Positions 166-31,012 of a DNA stretch of 31,759 nt are shown piece by piece. Location: positions 1 to 31,759 of the forward strand of contig VBFM01000094.1 in assembly GCA_005882595.1 (NCBI GenBank), written 5' to 3'. The position numbers and the translations under genes were made by a program. Source of the DNA: Chloroflexota bacterium (GTDB lineage Bacteria; Chloroflexota; Ktedonobacteria; Ktedonobacterales; Ktedonobacteraceae). Numbering within the stretch: the stretch's first letter is position 1; each line of letters starts with the position of its first letter. The notes beneath the pieces are model-generated. The model was not told the origin of the DNA. It did no database searches and saw only the letters and a list, made by a program, of their open reading frames with translations.

Positions 166-244
166 GGGTAGGCCCTGGAAGTTGTTATCTTTTGAATAGC
201 CCTGATTTTCATACCTTTTTTCTCTGTACGTTTGTCTCAAAATC

Positions 245-253
245 TGCTATAGT
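245..253 (+). promoter_or_regulatory. Putative extended -10 promoter for the RNase D-like gene
   Basis: TGcTATAGT about 110 nt upstream of the start codon; no good -35. Confidence 0.4.
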
Positions 254-265
254 TGCTGCAAATAA

Positions 266-323
266 ACTACTTATCCGACTGCCTGACACGCAGTGTAGCA
301 CGTAGTGCGTTGGCAGTCGGAAT
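266..323 (+). repeat. Hairpin element, family H, copy A
   Basis: ccgactgcc (275-283) / ggcagtcgg (312-320) 9-bp inverted repeat; the 46-bp core is 43/46 identical to 14040-14085. Confidence 0.85.
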
Positions 324-364
324 ACGGACCATTAGGCATTATTCAGTCTCGATAAGGTATATGC

Positions 365-2997: not shown

Positions 2998-3096
2998 GCC
3001 AGGGCGACCGCAAGGGTGCGCCCCTACAATATACGAATGCGTCTGCTGCCTGATTTGTCCGTATATTGTAGGGGCGTACCCTTGCGGTCGCCCTGG
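2998..3096. repeat. REPIN (inverted REP doublet)
   Basis: gggcgaccgcaagggtgcgcccctac-aatatacg (3002-3035) is inverted against cgtatatt-gtaggggcgtacccttgcggtcgccc (3060-3093) with one mismatch. Confidence 0.85.
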
Positions 3097-13898: not shown

Positions 13899-13960
13899 TT
13901 CGACCGGATGACCCGAGGCGCTGTCACGTAGTGCTGACGCGCAGTGTCGTTTCCGATCAG

Positions 13961-14094
13961 AATACTACCTTGCCGACTGCCTAAGCCGCAGGCTAGCACG
14001 CAGTGCGTTGGCAGTCGGAAGAAGAGGAATACTACCTTGCCGACTGCCTGACACGCAGTGTAGAACACAGTGCGTTGGCAGTCGGAAGAAGAGG
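13961..14094 (+). repeat. Hairpin element family H, two tandem 67-bp copies (B1 13961-14027, B2 14028-14094)
   Basis: Units are 60/67 identical; each carries a ccgactgcc/ggcagtcgg stem. Confidence 0.9.
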
Positions 14095-14116
14095 AAAAAG
14101 AGACCAGGAGGACAGC

Positions 14117-15817
14117 ATGTCCAAATTCATTTTTGTTACGGGTGGTGTGGCATCTTCGGTAGGAAAGGGTATCACGGTCGCCTCTCTGGGCCGCTTGCTC
14201 AAGAATCGCGGAGTCTCGGTCGCCCTTATGAAGTTAGACCCTTACATCAATGTTGATCCAGGTACGATGTCGCCTTATCAGCATGGTGAGGTCTTTGTCA
14301 CCGATGATGGAGCGGAAACCGATCTTGATCTTGGCCACTACGAGCGTTTTACCGACGAGCCAGCATACCAGGCAAATAATGTAACAACGGGACAGGTCTA
14401 CGCTGCCGTTATTGGCAAGGAGCGCCGTGGCGAATATCTGGGAGGCACCATCCAGGTGATCCCCCATATCACCAATGAGATCAAGGAGCGCATCCATAAC
14501 GTTGCGCGTCAATCCGACGCGGATGTCGTGATTGTCGAAGTAGGCGGCACTGTCGGCGATATCGAGGGCGAGCCGTTTCTGGAGGCTATTCGCCAGATGC
14601 GTAAAGATGTAGGGCGTCGAGATGTACTGTATATGCACGTCACTCTATTGCCCTATCTGATGGCAACCAAAGAACTGAAAACCAAGCCAACCCAGCACAT
14701 TCAACCCGATGTGATCCTATGCCGTTCTGACTATCCCTTGAGCGACGACTTGCGCGAGAAAATTGCGCTCTTCTGCAATATCGAAGAACGCGCCGTTGTT
14801 CCCTTGCTCACTACCGAAACGATCTATGAGGTTCCACTCATCCTGGAAGAGGCGGGTCTGGGTGAATACCTTGTGCAGGAACTCAGTTTGCCCAAACACG
14901 AGCCTCAGATGCAGGAATGGCGCGAACTGGTTGCCAGGATCAAGCATCCTCGCCCGGAGCTGGTTATCGGGCTGATAGGCAAATACGTCGAACTGCATGA
15001 TGCATACCTCTCCGTGGCGGAGAGCTTGCGCCATGCCGGTTGGCATCATGGTGTCGATGTGCGTATCAAATGGATTAACTCCGAGGCCCTGGAAAAGATG
15101 GGCGAGGGCTATACGGAATTGCTGGAGGATGTTGCAGGCATTGTCGTACCCGGTGGTTTCGGTCATCGTGGTATCGAGGGCAAGATTAAAGCCGCCAACT
15201 TCGCTCGCCGCACGGGTACGCCCTATCTCGGACTCTGTCTGGGCCTGCAGGTCGCGGTGATCGAGTTTGCCCGCAATGTGCTGGGATTGACCGGTGCAAA
15301 TAGCACCGAATTTGATCCTCAGACTCCCTATCCCGTCATCGATTTAATGCCTACCCAGCGGCAAGTGGCGGATAAAGGTGGTACAATGCGTCTGGGGAAC
15401 TGGGTGTGTTGCCTGACCCCTGGCACTCGGGCCTATGAAGCCTACGGTGAGGCCATCGTGTTTGAGCGCCACCGTCATCGTTATGAATTCAACAACGAAT
15501 ATCGTAAACGTATGGAGGCGCATGGTGTGAAGGTTAGCGGTCGCTCGGCTGATAATAGCCTGGTGGAGATCATCGAACTGGCGCATCATCCCTGGTTCGT
15601 CGCTTCGCAATTCCATCCGGAGTTTAAGAGCCGTCCTACTCGTCCTCATCCGCTCTTCCGAGATTTTGTGGGCGCGTGCCTGCAGGGGGAAGAAGAGAAA
15701 CAGCGCGCAGCGTACGAGGCATTTGAACGCCAGGTAGTAGGAGCTTCGGCGGAGCTTGCTGAACATGCTTCCATGCACCATACATCCGATATGCCGGATT
15801 CTCGCATCGAGAAGTAG
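14117..15817 (+). CDS. pyrG: CTP synthase, with an apparent in-frame ~9-codon deletion after KTKPTQH
   Basis: [45 protein letters not shown] nucleophile, RHRHRYE, QFHPEF; ATG 14117 has a GGAGG RBS. Confidence 0.97.
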
Positions 15818-15819
15818 CA

Positions 15820-17172
15820 ATGATGTACCTGAGCCAACTACTCGGCACCCCTGTCGAGGACCCGCAGGGAGTGCGAGTAGGTAAAATCATCGATATCGTC
15901 ACCCCGGTAGGGACGCGATCTAGCACGCCCACTACCTCATCCACTCCTGCAATTTCTTCACTCTCTACTCCTTCATCCATCCCCACGTTAGTAGTTGAAG
16001 GCCAGGCCGGTCAATCGTGGTATGTGCCTATAGAGGATGTGGAATGGAATGGCAACATCTTACGTCTGCACGTACCGGTCGATCAACTTCCAACGCGACC
16101 AACCGAACCGCATGAAGTGAGCCTGGCGCAGGAAGTGCTTGATAAACAGGTCATCGATGTTGAGCATAAAAAGGCCGTGCGTGTGAACGATGTCTGCTTG
16201 AGCGACGACTGGCGTATTTTGGGTATTGATAACAGCACGCTAGGGTTAGTGCGCCGTCTCGCACCATCCTGGTTACTCGGCGCGAGGAGCAAGCGTGCCT
16301 CCACCACGCTCATTCCCTGGGAACATATTGAACTGATTAGCGCGCAACCGGTTGAGGAAGAGGCTCGCGCCGACACGGGCGCGATAAACCAGGCCTCTAC
16401 ATCGTCAACCTCGCGCGTTGGACGCCCACAGAGTGGTCAGCTAGCCGAGCTGCATCCGGCAGATATCGCTGATATCGTGCATCAACTCACCCCTGGACAA
16501 GGGGCGCGCCTGCTGGAGGGACTGGACGACGAAACCGCCGCCGACACCCTGGAAGAAATCGACACGGAGCGCCAGAGCCATATCCTTGAAAATATTGACC
16601 CGGAACGCGCCGCCGATATCCTGGAAGAGATGGAACCCGACGAAGCCGCCGACTTACTCGCTCGCTTGCCGGAGGAACGTGCGCAGCAACTCCTGCGCTT
16701 GATGAATCCAGAAGAGTCTGAGGATGTGCAGGAATTGCTCGAATACGAAGAAGATACAGCAGGTGGCCTCATGACCACGGACTTCGTGGTGATCGATGCT
16801 ACAAAGAGCGCAGGAGATGCATTAGAAGCAGCGCGCTTCAATATTCGCGAGAAGGATGTACGTGTCGCCTATGTGTACTGCATCGCGGATGAGGAAAAAG
16901 AAGATTATACACTGCTGGGCGTCGTTTCCCTGTGGGATTTACTGATAGCCGACCCGGCCCAGCCCTTGCAAGAACTCATGGAGACCGATCTTATCACCGT
17001 ACAGCCCGATACTGACCCACGCACCGTTGCCGAAATCATGGCGAAATACAATCTCCTCGCCGTCCCCGTCGTGAACGAGGAGCGCGTTATCGAAGGCGTC
17101 GTGATGGTGGATGATGCTCTGGATGTGCTGCTACCTGACGAGAGGCGCCGGAAGCCTACCAGGATGTATTAG
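15820..17172 (+). CDS. MgtE-like cytoplasmic protein (PRC-barrel + MgtE N-terminal + CBS pair), no membrane domain
   Basis: PRC-like YLSQLLGTPVEDPQGVRVGKI, LHPADIADI, YEEDTAGGLMTT, KYNLLAVPVV...DDALDVL; no hydrophobic C-terminal region. Confidence 0.85.
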   Translation: MMYLSQLLGTPVEDPQGVRVGKIIDIVTPVGTRSSTPTTSSTPAISSLSTPSSIPTLVVEGQAGQSWYVPIEDVEWNGNILRLHVPVDQLPTRPTEPHEVSLAQEVLDKQVIDVEHKKAVRVNDVCLSDDWRILGIDNSTLGLVRRLAPSWLLGARSKRASTTLIPWEHIELISAQPVEEEARADTGAINQASTSSTSRVGRPQSGQLAELHPADIADIVHQLTPGQGARLLEGLDDETAADTLEEIDTERQSHILENIDPERAADILEEMEPDEAADLLARLPEERAQQLLRLMNPEESEDVQELLEYEEDTAGGLMTTDFVVIDATKSAGDALEAARFNIREKDVRVAYVYCIADEEKEDYTLLGVVSLWDLLIADPAQPLQELMETDLITVQPDTDPRTVAEIMAKYNLLAVPVVNEERVIEGVVMVDDALDVLLPDERRRKPTRMY

Positions 17173-21996: not shown

Positions 21997-22079
21997 ACTT
22001 GTAGTTCCTCCTCGTATACAGTAGTATAGCACAGGAGGGTTACTGATGATGTTTCCAATCGTTATGTACACTACATGCT

Positions 22080-22191
22080 CCTTGCGTCCTGCCTGAGCGA
22101 AGCGCACACCTTGCATCTTGCCTGAGCGTAGCTAGCACGCAGTGCGTTGGCAAGATGCCTTACAAGAAGCACGCAGTGCGTTGGCAGGATG
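22080..22191 (+). repeat. Hairpin element family H, two nested copies
   Basis: Inner stem gcatcttgcc (22113-22122) / ggcaagatgc (22149-22158); outer stem gtcctgcc / ggcaggat; both end in agcacgcagtgcgttggca. Confidence 0.85.
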
Positions 22192-22248
22192 TCTTTCAAG
22201 GTGCCGACATCCCGCGTAACGAGGAATGCAAAAGTTCAAGGAAGTAAT

Positions 22249-23121
22249 ATGCGAATTATACATGACCTGGATGAAATGACCGAAACGGCGCGAGGCTGGC
22301 TTTCTGGTGGAATTATTGGATTCATCCCGACGGTTGGCTATCTTCATGCCGGTCATGCATCATTGATACAGGCGGCGCGCCAGGAATGTGAATACAGCAT
22401 CGTCAGTATTTTTGTGAACCCGCTCGAGTTCGATCAAGACGAGGCCCCTATTCTCTATCCAAATAATTTGACCGGTGATATACAGTTTCTGGATAAAGAA
22501 CAGGTGGATGTGGTGTTTATTCCTCGTTTCGAAGAGATGTACCCGCCAGATTTTTCTACCTATGTGGTGGTCTTTGGCCCGGTAGCCGAACGACTGGAAG
22601 CAGCATTCCGCCCTGAACATGTGCGTGGCTATGCTACCAACATCGTCAAATTATTGCAACTTGTGCGGCCCGATATGGCCTATTTTGGGCAAAACAATGC
22701 CCAGCATGTGGCATTGATCCGTCGGCTCGTGCGTGATTTGAGTATAGATGTGAAGTTACAGGTGTTGCCGACCGTGCGCGATACGGATGGGCTTGCGCTA
22801 AGTATTCGCAATCAGGCCCTCAGTCCTGAAGAGCGGCAAGCAGCACCCCTACTGTATCAAGCGCTGCTGGCAGGGAAAGCGCTGATCGAACAAGGTGAGC
22901 GCAACCTGGCCCTCATTGAAAAAACGATGGTTGACGTAATAACGGCCTCACCTTTCATCAAGTTGGACTACGCCACTGCTTGTGACCCTCAAAGCTTCGA
23001 ACAGCCAGGTGACATGCTGCCAGAAACGCTTACTGATTTGCTGCTGGTAGTTGCGGCACACTTCGGTACTACGCGCCTCAATGACAATCTGCTCCTACGT
23101 GATGGTCACTGGCTAATCTGA
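22249..23121 (+). CDS. panC: Pantoate--beta-alanine ligase (PanC)-like protein with divergent active site
   Basis: GFIPTVGYLHAGHASL (HxGH), SIFVNP, RPDMAYFG, VRDTDGLALSIRN, RLNDN; full length. Confidence 0.8.
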   Translation: MRIIHDLDEMTETARGWLSGGIIGFIPTVGYLHAGHASLIQAARQECEYSIVSIFVNPLEFDQDEAPILYPNNLTGDIQFLDKEQVDVVFIPRFEEMYPPDFSTYVVVFGPVAERLEAAFRPEHVRGYATNIVKLLQLVRPDMAYFGQNNAQHVALIRRLVRDLSIDVKLQVLPTVRDTDGLALSIRNQALSPEERQAAPLLYQALLAGKALIEQGERNLALIEKTMVDVITASPFIKLDYATACDPQSFEQPGDMLPETLTDLLLVVAAHFGTTRLNDNLLLRDGHWLI

Positions 23122-29393: not shown

Positions 29394-30779
29394 TTATCGG
29401 ACAAATTGTTTCAATACTTCGTCAACCCCAGGATGCAGACGGTTCAGCCGTAAATCTTCGGAACCGCTTGGATCGGTTTGCAGGAGCAGAATCCCCTGTT
29501 GAACGCAGGTATTGAGCAGCTCCCGCGCTGATTCGCGTGTCAGGCGCCCCCGAAAACGATTTTTCGGGTTGACGGGATCACCAATAAAATTGGATACGCC
29601 AATAATCGTGCGCCAGGACCAGTTGCGATCAATGTAGTCGAGGAATTGTAAAAATTGGGGGTCTAGCACATCCATGGGATAAGCTGAAGACGCGTTATAG
29701 GGCGAAGGTGACATGCCCTGACCTCCTGCGGAGATGGCAGGCATGCTGCCTGTATTGCCGGGCATGGACATCTGCCCATAGCCGGTATCAGCCATTTGCC
29801 CGGTGCCACCGAAGGCAGGATTTCCCCCCGGAATGAGCGGCACAAACTGGTTCGCGCTGCTAATAAGGTCTCGGCTGACGGTTCCCGGTATACCAACAAC
29901 AATCACAGTTTTGTTTAGACGTAACTTAAGACGAGCGCTAATGCGGGTGAAATCCTTATCGCCGGTCATCAAAACGAATGTAGAGATAGTAGGACGATCA
30001 AAGACAGTTTCAATTATATCCATCAGCATATTGAGGTCAACGGTACTTTGCACCACCGTACTCTGTACAATGGTATTGGACCCACTGGCATTGATGGCAG
30101 GCATATGACCAGTATTGCCTGTATGCACTACAGGCGTACCATTTGGATAACCCAGGGGACCGGTGCTACTACCCTGGCCCAATGAGCCTGTGGGAGTAGT
30201 TTGACCATAAGGGGTTGGATAGGTAGGATGGCTCAGGAATTGGCGGGATGGCTCTCGCTGTGGATAATCCTCCGACAGGTAGCCTTCGTCGGCCAATGAC
30301 TCGTGCTCTTCCAGCATATCCTCGTCGGCCTCGGATGGCCTGGACTCCGAAGAGTCCTGGTAGCCGGGCCATTCATTCCCTACCCCCTGCGGGGTGATCG
30401 CAGGTAATGGACCAGAATTGCCAAGGGGACCGCTAGGCCATTGACGCTGAAAGGCGCCCGTTCCCTGCTCTGTTACCAGCCCAGGTGAACCAAGGGAACC
30501 TGTTGGCGAATTAGCCGATGGGTAATGCATCGTTCCCATTCTAATACGGTCTCGCTGTTTGGCCGGACAATCTACCCGGTCAATCATCGCCGCCGTCAGG
30601 CTTCCTTTGAATGGCTCTGGTTGTCGAGACCAATCCGCATAAGCGCGGGCAACCATCACTGTCCCATATCGACGCGCTACCGCGATCAATTCCTGGGGGT
30701 CAGGTTCCCGTCGCTGGATATTCAGCATACTATATCGGATGTTCTCAAAATCGATGAATAAAGCTATTTCTTCAGGCAC
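29394..30779 (-). CDS. NYN (LabA/DUF88) domain protein with a large low-complexity insertion
   Basis: ALFIDFEN, RAYADW, TVDLNMLMD, MTGDKDF, VIVVG...SRDLISSANQF motifs; GTG start. Confidence 0.85.
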   Translation of the reverse strand: MPEEIALFIDFENIRYSMLNIQRREPDPQELIAVARRYGTVMVARAYADWSRQPEPFKGSLTAAMIDRVDCPAKQRDRIRMGTMHYPSANSPTGSLGSPGLVTEQGTGAFQRQWPSGPLGNSGPLPAITPQGVGNEWPGYQDSSESRPSEADEDMLEEHESLADEGYLSEDYPQREPSRQFLSHPTYPTPYGQTTPTGSLGQGSSTGPLGYPNGTPVVHTGNTGHMPAINASGSNTIVQSTVVQSTVDLNMLMDIIETVFDRPTISTFVLMTGDKDFTRISARLKLRLNKTVIVVGIPGTVSRDLISSANQFVPLIPGGNPAFGGTGQMADTGYGQMSMPGNTGSMPAISAGGQGMSPSPYNASSAYPMDVLDPQFLQFLDYIDRNWSWRTIIGVSNFIGDPVNPKNRFRGRLTRESARELLNTCVQQGILLLQTDPSGSEDLRLNRLHPGVDEVLKQFVR

Positions 30780-31012
30780 ATTTTTCTCCTTTCATAGGGA
30801 GAAACCGCGCAGCCAGAATGTATGATTGTTCAAGTGCATGAAATCAATCGAAGCAATGGCTTCTCCTGCTTTCCAAAGATGCTTGCCCACATTCAAAACG
30901 CTACTGCGTAGCTAGTGCTTCGCACTCATCTGAATGTAAGGAAGTATTAGCTATGAGCATATCATACTTTCCTACTAAAGTCGAGTGGTCAAAAATAAAA
31001 AATGGCTGGCGC

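Follow-up and report, generated by a model that had tools for sequence, protein, structure and literature searches.

A probable non-autonomous mobile repeat with a three-way-junction DNA fold, upstream of housekeeping genes in a Ktedonobacteria genome

Introduction

The REP and BIME palindromes of Escherichia coli, Pseudomonas and Stenotrophomonas are short, structured, high-copy and mostly extragenic, and they are restricted to particular lineages. A REP is a single hairpin of 20-40 nt with GTAG (GTRG) at its 5' foot, BIMEs arrange such hairpins as inverted doublets and mosaic arrays, and the hairpin is the presumed single-stranded DNA substrate in the RAYT system; TnpAREP cleaves at a CT dinucleotide (PMC8266576). 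In Pseudomonas fluorescens, REPINs join two inverted REPs into one long hairpin and form non-autonomous replicating populations that persist in a lineage, with compensatory changes in the hairpin (PMC3116915). Bacterial MITEs such as Correia/NEMIS, RUP, ERIC and Nezha have inverted ends and nested copies, lie beside or within transcription units and are co-transcribed with neighboring genes, and the PATEs derived from IS200/IS605 have hairpin-defined ends and insert in a specific orientation beside a short motif. RPEs, which are about 100-150 bp long, and the intragenic REPs of Opitutus terrae insert in frame and leave genes open (PMC3733652). Di Nocera et al. also described GTAG repeats in Chloroflexi and REPs nested in larger palindromes (PMC3733652). 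Our full-text literature searches returned no description of REP-like repeats in Ktedonobacteria.

Here we describe a ~65-nt repeat found in front of three housekeeping genes of one such soil bacterium. The evidence leads us to favor a model in which it is a structured, non-autonomous mobile repeat akin to REPs and MITEs, patchily distributed in one bacterial family, and we consider this model likely to be correct.

Results

The window, by which we mean the whole stretch of DNA analyzed (31,759 nt), is the first 31.8 kb of contig C85 in a draft genome of 4.43 Mb and 520 contigs that is 74% complete. An initial annotation, made from the letters of this stretch, had described five copies of a covarying hairpin at three loci. 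We built a covariance model, R1, from 39 genomic copies of the ~65-nt repeat. It gives four strong matches in the window, all on the + strand at 73-76 bits, and together with the sequence itself it confirms five copies at three loci, the inner copy upstream of the panC-like gene being nested in a split outer copy. The count of five holds for these loci but missed a sixth, diverged copy on the - strand. The copies and their context are as follows, with H1 and H2 denoting two internal mini-hairpins.

227..253, + strand: promoter-like motif TACGTTT-N-AAAATCTGCTATAGT preceding the RNase D-like gene (context only, outside the element)
266..330, + strand: copy A (R1, 76 bits); outer stem CCGACTGCC/GGCAGTCGG, H1 CAC-GCA-GTG, TAG, H2 GCAC-GTA-GTGC, tail GGAATACGGACC
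13928..13955, + strand: possible degenerate fragment just upstream of B1, GTAG-TGC-TGA-CGCGCAG-TGT-CGTT; tentative (by eye, R1 silent)
13964..14028, + strand: copy B1 (R1, 75.2 bits), first unit of a 67-nt head-to-tail tandem (unit 13961-14027)
14031..14095, + strand: copy B2, second tandem unit (R1, 73.3 bits; sequence; fold), with a degraded H2 (GAACACAGTGC)
22080..22108, + strand: 5' half of the outer (host) copy, CCTTGCGTCC-TGCC-TGA-GCGAAGC, then GCAC-A (sequence, by eye)
22109..22168, + strand: inner copy, outer stem CATCTTGCC/GGCAAGATG, tail CCTTACAAGAA (R1 22105-22167, 74.7 bits)
22169..22201, + strand: 3' half of the outer copy, H2 GCAC-GCA-GTGC, GTT, GGCAGGATG, tail TCTTTCAAGG; supported by a partial nhmmer match at 22168-22200
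30880..30945, - strand: sixth, diverged copy (R1, 26.3 bits, E 4e-5; sequence), CCTT-ACATTCA..TGA-GTGC-GAA-GCAC-TAG-CTAC-GCA-GTAG-CGTT..TGAATGT

Copy A begins 13 nt after the TATAGT of the 227-253 motif and lies between that motif and the RNase D-like gene, about 34 nt from its start (TTG 365). Copy B2 ends 21 nt before the pyrG ATG at 14117, and the outer copy ends 47 nt before the panC-like ATG at 22249; these values replace the 32-58 nt given originally. The sixth copy is about 100 nt upstream of a - strand gene starting at 30779. At the panC locus, 22080-22108 pairs with 22169-22201, and the inner copy is placed in the H1-H2 junction/H2 region of the outer one in the same orientation, an interrupted architecture that recurs on contigs C237 and C285. 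The window copies probably lie in 5' untranslated regions. Copy A had been placed downstream of a promoter; a simple sigma-70 consensus scan does not detect the 227-253 motif, but the motif is kept in the window and in the orthologous upstream regions of five relatives. Sigma-70 and terminator consensus scans around the three window loci returned nothing useful, and we ruled out an intrinsic terminator because no T-run follows the stem on either strand. A separate motif, CAGTAGTATA(A/G)CA..GTTAC..TACAT at ~22010-22076, precedes the panC-like gene in its divergent spacer and recurs in the orthologous spacers of several relatives (L084, L086, L087, L088, L091); it is a possible operator or promoter, and the nested elements separate it from panC.

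Aligned copies share one order of parts. On the 5' side, CCTT(G/T)C is followed by five variable bases and TGCC, which make up the 5' arm, and then by TGA and H1; on the 3' side come TA, H2, GTT, GGCA with the five-base complement as the 3' arm, and a subfamily-specific tail. The outer stem, read originally as 4 bp (N4/N4'), is 9-10 bp long (N5 + TGCC/GGCA), and its sequence defines subfamilies. What had been taken for an interior of 11-13 nt plus a conserved core is in fact two mini-hairpins of DNA type, H1 with a stem of 2-4 bp and H2 with a stem of 4-5 bp (GCAC/GTGC, GGAC/GTCC, GAAC/GTTC or GAGAC/GTCTC), each closing a three-base loop, so that the ~65-nt DNA fold is a three-way junction in which the outer stem surrounds H1 and H2. 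DNA folding yields this Y shape for copy A (-15.7 kcal/mol, z -3.75) and copy B1 (-16.2 kcal/mol, z -3.2), with z-scores spanning -3.2 to -3.8. The joints TGA, (G/C)TAG and CGTTG are unpaired and invariant. GNA triloops cap 48 of 58 H1 and 49 of 58 H2 hairpins, always with a C-G closing pair, and many H1 sequences (GCGAAGC, GCGCAGC or GCGTAGC) match GCGNAGC, the motif of mini-hairpin DNA with extraordinary stability (PMC13037366). The element had been said to lack a 5' GTAG foot. The tetranucleotide does exist, but it is internal: TAG is near-invariant directly 5' of H2 and is preceded by G or C in about equal shares. Hammerhead and other small ribozymes, candidates in view of the three-way junction and CUGA joint, were rejected; the core does not fit and Rfam is silent.

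The paired-block covariation first noticed in the window is real. Among the 39 copies, 97.8% of cells pair compared with 79.2% in shuffles, double-change cells number 102 versus 34, and the covariation score is 0.436 versus 0.139, with none of 500 shuffles reaching 0.436; sliding the partners by one to three columns drops pairing to 16-61%. In 16 copies from other genera, CCTT, TGA, C-GNA-G, (G/C)TAG and CGTTG are kept and the outer stem and H2 vary with compensation. Across genera 98% of cells pair and covariation is 0.63 versus 0.14, on an alignment that was fitted to the model and so favors pairing. Compensatory changes preserve the structure within and between genomes, and conservation peaks internally, in the joints and triloops, and is lower at the termini.

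An iterated nhmmer search returned 95 matches on 65 contigs, 50 on the + and 45 on the - strand, and a whole-genome R1 search likewise gave 95; in this 74%-complete draft, the ~95 copies make up 82 loci. Insertion targets are intergenic spacers, the loops of other copies and of GTAG REPs (in the same orientation), and genes, in frame. Gene calls were our own, based on ORFs and codon usage; they are crude, with starts taken as the longest ORF. By these calls, divergent spacers hold 13-15 loci and convergent spacers are depleted, with 2-3 loci versus ~10 expected from spacer length on the crude calls, which could reflect expression-related selection. Adjacent loci on one contig agree in orientation in 12 cases and disagree in 5 (p = 0.14), and agreement with the local gene-strand majority stands at 13 versus 20; neither figure is significant. 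Mixed copy orientation on single contigs is common, here and in G013, so that a strong bias towards one replication strand, as in IS608, is not seen.

The initial annotation offered two explanations for the copies, one of which was a cis-regulatory 5' leader RNA, comparable to a riboswitch or attenuator, controlling housekeeping genes. Several features of the window fit this idea: all six copies are sense and upstream of a gene start, copy A is just downstream of a conserved promoter-like motif, and structural covariation is strong. In addition, a contig from an RNA library (metatranscriptome) spans 13991-14500 and bridges copy B into pyrG, which is weak evidence for co-transcription of the B copies with this gene. 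Across the genome, however, 16 loci in co-directional spacers are sense and 26 antisense by all gene calls, and 15 versus 24 when only high-scoring genes are counted (p = 0.20); there is therefore no sense preference upstream of genes, an outcome that the initial annotation itself had named as refuting a leader RNA. Loci facing a gene start are antisense in 41 cases and sense in 31. The element's neighbors share no gene function, Rfam has no match, and copies also occur within coding sequences, within each other and within REP loops.

Orthologous sites in relatives further argue against a leader RNA. Synteny of the gene upstream of pyrG is kept in 24 relatives, and the spacer between is hypervariable. 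In the closest relative, whose PyrG is 90% identical, it measures ~16 nt and contains no element; in others it holds nothing, classical GTAG REPs or other palindromes. The element is missing from 22 of the 24 pyrG leaders and the remaining two hold a different, diverged family member, while by the element profile neither the panC-like gene in 12 relatives nor the RNase D-like gene in 5 has a copy upstream. The copies in the window are therefore insertions specific to this lineage, placed in 5' leaders. We regard control by a cis-regulatory leader RNA as extremely unlikely, although copy B may have RNA-level effects on pyrG. Two further observations concern the pyrG spacer. Most relatives (L059-L079) have GGCAAGGCTCCGG..AAGGAGG just before the pyrG start, and the GGCAAGGCTCC part of this motif is missing in the window genome and its closest relative. 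In a single short DNA contig from a metagenome, 13912 is linked to 14089 through 17 other letters; given its brevity and ambiguity, we did not count this contig as an empty or variant allele.

The distribution of the element is patchy. R1 finds it in 13 of 24 further genera within the family, with 1-109 matches each; it has no match in 16 genomes of sister families or in 142 genomes sampled across the remainder of the phylum. An unpublished genome, G020, supplies one of the 13 positive genera, one row (L048) of alignment A2 and one of the 24 pyrG comparisons (L060), and no conclusion depends on it. Rfam yields no match at the gathering score and only chance miRNA matches (E > 1) at a relaxed E-value, and a degenerate pattern of the element with 15 fixed bases, run against a genome contig collection, gave only single chance matches in unrelated phyla. 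The family was originally not recognized as a named one, and with no Rfam or published match it still has no name; it is, however, entangled with the genome's classical GTAG REPs. In soil metagenome runs X1 and X7, the summed contig depth over positions 13941-14095 reaches 10-30x the flanking depth, and contigs are broken at the element. Short-read assemblies are fragmented by the repeat, which is abundant in the sampled soil communities.

Thirteen loci carry at least two copies, in tandem or nested, and the copies are co-oriented at all 13. Nested inserts occupy a few fixed sites that the fold leaves unpaired: at or beside the TA that separates H1 from H2, in the H2 loop, and just after H2. 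One subfamily, CTTCCTTTC...AAGGAMCCT, occurs six times and only inside other copies, at the H1-H2 junction; a 24-nt mini-insert is confined to the H2 loop, in 7 copies that differ in their outer stems. Modules have been exchanged among subfamilies. Classical REPs of at least three subfamilies are also present, including long REPs starting GTAGGGGCGRGGG that stand as inverted pairs around the RAYT genes on C434 and C152. The genome has 537 REP heads of the form GTAGGGRYG, 173 of which belong to simple hairpins made of GTAG, GGRCGCRAT, a short loop and the complementary arm, and about 8 simple GTAG REP hairpins hold a Y-shaped element in the loop. Five such heads lie in the window, versus 0.6 expected.

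2416-2424, + strand: GTAGGGRYG REP head
3019-3027, - strand: GTAGGGRYG REP head
3068-3076, + strand: GTAGGGRYG REP head
15907-15915, + strand: GTAGGGRYG REP head
22844-22852, - strand: GTAGGGRYG REP head

Elsewhere, an NRPS gene with condensation, adenylation, PCP and thioesterase domains (C437:1341-5601, L260) is broken in its adenylation domain. The break lies where a GTAG REP is combined with two nested elements, and the two ORFs on either side leave Pfam AMP-binding positions ~103-258 uncovered.

Four copies lie in frame within genes that stay open (loci L236-L239). Pfam domains are found on both sides of each, and alignment shows the inserts to be missing from relatives' orthologs.

C296:1690-1757: copy in cydA
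C147:2069-2139: copy in uvrA
C224:10510-10577: copy in the glycogen debranching enzyme gene
C285:966-1027: copy in an A2M-like gene

Two of the four are wrapped in a GTAG REP. The cydA insert adds 66 nt and is bounded by a 9-nt direct repeat, GATGAGTAC; the A2M-like insert adds 63 nt with a junction repeat of at most 1 nt, and the host sequence ATACTC immediately precedes the element. The debranching-enzyme insert of ~111-120 nt is a REP plus the element, and the uvrA linker gains ~28 residues. Precisely mapped inserts start with CT. The five bases 5' of CCTT tend towards TACT(A/T), and since they are host sequence in the two best-mapped cases they may represent a target motif or microhomology. 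Altogether, ~95 copies on both strands, tandem and nested arrangements, patchiness and inserts missing from orthologs support the other explanation in the initial annotation, a self-propagating, non-autonomous element of ~65 nt.

An element of this description could also be a conventional MITE, that is, a deletion derivative of an IS with a DDE transposase, in which the outer arms are terminal inverted repeats and movement is by cut-and-paste or copy-paste with a target-site duplication. The 9-10 bp inverted arms, the ~65-nt size, the tandem and nested copies, the insertion polymorphism and the direct repeat around the cydA insert are all consistent with this model. The near-absence of a repeat at the A2M-like junction is not, and conservation that peaks internally is unusual for terminal-inverted-repeat recognition. 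Co-oriented nesting at 13 of 13 loci would be unexpected with symmetric ends. Furthermore, the assembled 74% of the genome holds no longer element with the same arms: matching arms bound only nested or tandem pairs, no arm pair 200-5000 nt apart surrounds a transposase, and one 2-kb arm pair encloses an NRPS gene, not a transposase. The junctions themselves are inconsistent (a 9-nt repeat at cydA, at most 1 nt at the A2M-like gene) and so do not separate Y1-type from DDE-type insertion. On balance, we think a conventional MITE quite unlikely.

If the element is instead mobilized by an HUH/Y1 transposase, candidate enzymes are encoded in the genome. RAYT-like genes are present on C434, C152 and C271; two ORFs are above the cut-off of NCBIfam NF047646 (REP-associated tyrosine transposase) and a third Y1 homolog is below it (55 bits). 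The third RAYT-like ORF (C271:14845-15477; L261 846-1478) has the peptides EGAMNCAPT and EGAINCAPT upstream and internally, which resemble translated REPs of the GTAGGGGCGCAAT type, and a REP may lie inside this reading frame. In favor of a Y1 route we count the DNA-type mini-hairpins, the invariant unpaired joints, the orientation-specific nesting, the xTAG directly 5' of H2 that resembles a minimal REP, the insert-initial CT, the one duplication-free insertion and the three RAYT-like genes themselves. Against it, the cydA junction resembles a 9-bp duplication and copies on one contig often differ in orientation. Inverted REPs starting GTAGGGGCG, and not the element, flank the RAYT genes on C434 and C152, and an R1 copy is nearby at only 1 of 14 RAYT loci. 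Strong RAYT matches accompany high copy number in 6 of 9 genomes versus 5 of 16, a co-occurrence that is unconvincing and not phylogenetically independent, and RAYT presence tracks copy number weakly across the family.

Y1 transposase homologs are accompanied in this genome by ten TnpB-like genes (Cas12f1-like_TNB). A diverged Y-shaped element lies 126 nt after the stop codon of the TnpB gene at C24:1560-2867; the whole-genome R1 match list has no copy near the other nine, and when four TnpB loci (L262-L265) were searched again directly with R1, three had no match. We treated this link, with a nearby copy at 1 of 10 genes, as coincidence.

Discussion

The element most closely resembles the REP/BIME-RAYT system. 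It is high-copy (95 copies, 82 loci), mainly extragenic and lineage-restricted, its copies cluster in mosaic arrays, and it resides in a RAYT-encoding genome. A hairpin, here H2, has xTAG directly at its 5' side, folded single-stranded DNA is the presumed substrate, and mapped inserts start with CT, as in TnpAREP cleavage sites. Unlike a REP, however, the element is a three-way junction, its tetranucleotide is internal and in about half of the copies reads CTAG, other GTAG REPs adjoin the RAYT genes here, and its arrays are direct (tandem or nested) instead of inverted doublets. With REPINs it shares the habit of a non-autonomous structured population persisting in a lineage with compensatory hairpin changes; it differs in having two internal mini-hairpins within a variable outer stem and no inverted REP pair, all 13 multi-copy loci being direct and co-oriented. 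The size range, inverted ends, nested copies, position beside or within transcription units and possible co-transcription with adjacent genes recall MITEs, but there is no consistent target-site duplication, no parent IS was found and internal conservation is strongest. As with RPEs and the intragenic REPs of O. terrae, in which uvrA is a REP target too (PMC3733652), insertion in frame leaves genes open, although the sequence is unrelated, RPEs are longer and most copies here are intergenic. PATEs offer a parallel in their hairpin-defined ends, orientation-specific insertion beside a short motif, at least one insertion without duplication, and the presence of TnpB genes and Y1 homologs, but no IS200/IS605 unit carries the element's structure at its ends. 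It lacks the single hairpin, flanking RAYT gene and inverted doublets that define REPs and REPINs and, in the assembled part of the genome, the parent IS of a MITE, while its internal (G/C)TAG and its unequal junction repeats give an equivocal picture for the GTAG foot and the fixed duplication. We therefore place it among small mobile palindromic repeats but in no named family.

How the element moves can be framed as a scenario. The conserved fold and joints would form the recognition surface for a mobilizing machinery that acts on one folded DNA strand, mini-hairpins of the GCGNAGC type being a hallmark of single-stranded DNA with unusual stability, and an HUH/Y1 transposase of the RAYT-like type would work on the element in trans. 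Copies in the pyrG, panC and RNase D-like leaders would be there by chance and may alter the expression of those genes as a side effect. We tentatively propose that the enzyme is of the HUH/Y1 kind, for example one of the genome's three RAYT-like proteins acting in trans, and we hold this part of the scenario with less than even confidence.

Alternatively, the copies could be host-exapted structural elements, such as sites for a nucleoid or repair protein or mRNA stabilizers, that are kept by selection and spread mainly by recombination or gene conversion, not by transposition. In favor of this are joints (TGA, TAG and CGTTG) that do not vary from genus to genus, the exchange of modules among subfamilies and the depletion of convergent spacers, and classical REPs have host roles of this kind (PMC3733652). 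Yet precise inserts of 63-66 nt in unrelated genes need an insertion mechanism, copy number ranges from 0 to >100 between sister genera, and some copies, such as B2 and 30880-30945, are degraded. We consider host exaptation very unlikely as the main explanation.

A more speculative extension of the mobile-repeat model is that these repeats represent a distinct class of mobile DNA, one that is recognized as a folded single-stranded three-way junction and inserts into the unpaired loops of folded repeats, moved by a RAYT or by another enzyme. The recognition unit would comprise the two GNA-triloop mini-hairpins and the fixed joints, and orientation-specific insertion into its own family and into GTAG REPs would build onion-like nested palindromes. 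A RAYT could use the internal xTAG-hairpin as a mimic of its usual target, or the enzyme could be one not yet linked to such repeats. We think it unlikely that a separate class will prove necessary.

If the element is, as we favor, a non-autonomous mobile repeat, several consequences follow. For annotation, our analysis eliminates an appealing but mistaken call, that of a covarying "leader RNA" in front of housekeeping genes. It also brings to light an undescribed structured repeat family outside the Proteobacteria, which have been the main ground of REP/RAYT study so far, and one with an unusual architecture, in which a three-way junction and mini-hairpins of DNA type go together with the nesting of copies in one another at fixed sites in the loops. 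Such repeats break up metagenome assemblies, with contig breaks and depth spikes, and the in-frame inserts in cydA and uvrA show that they can remodel proteins too. Finally, about 100 compensatorily varying copies provide a natural test set for how enzymes of the Y1/RAYT type, or others, read folded DNA.
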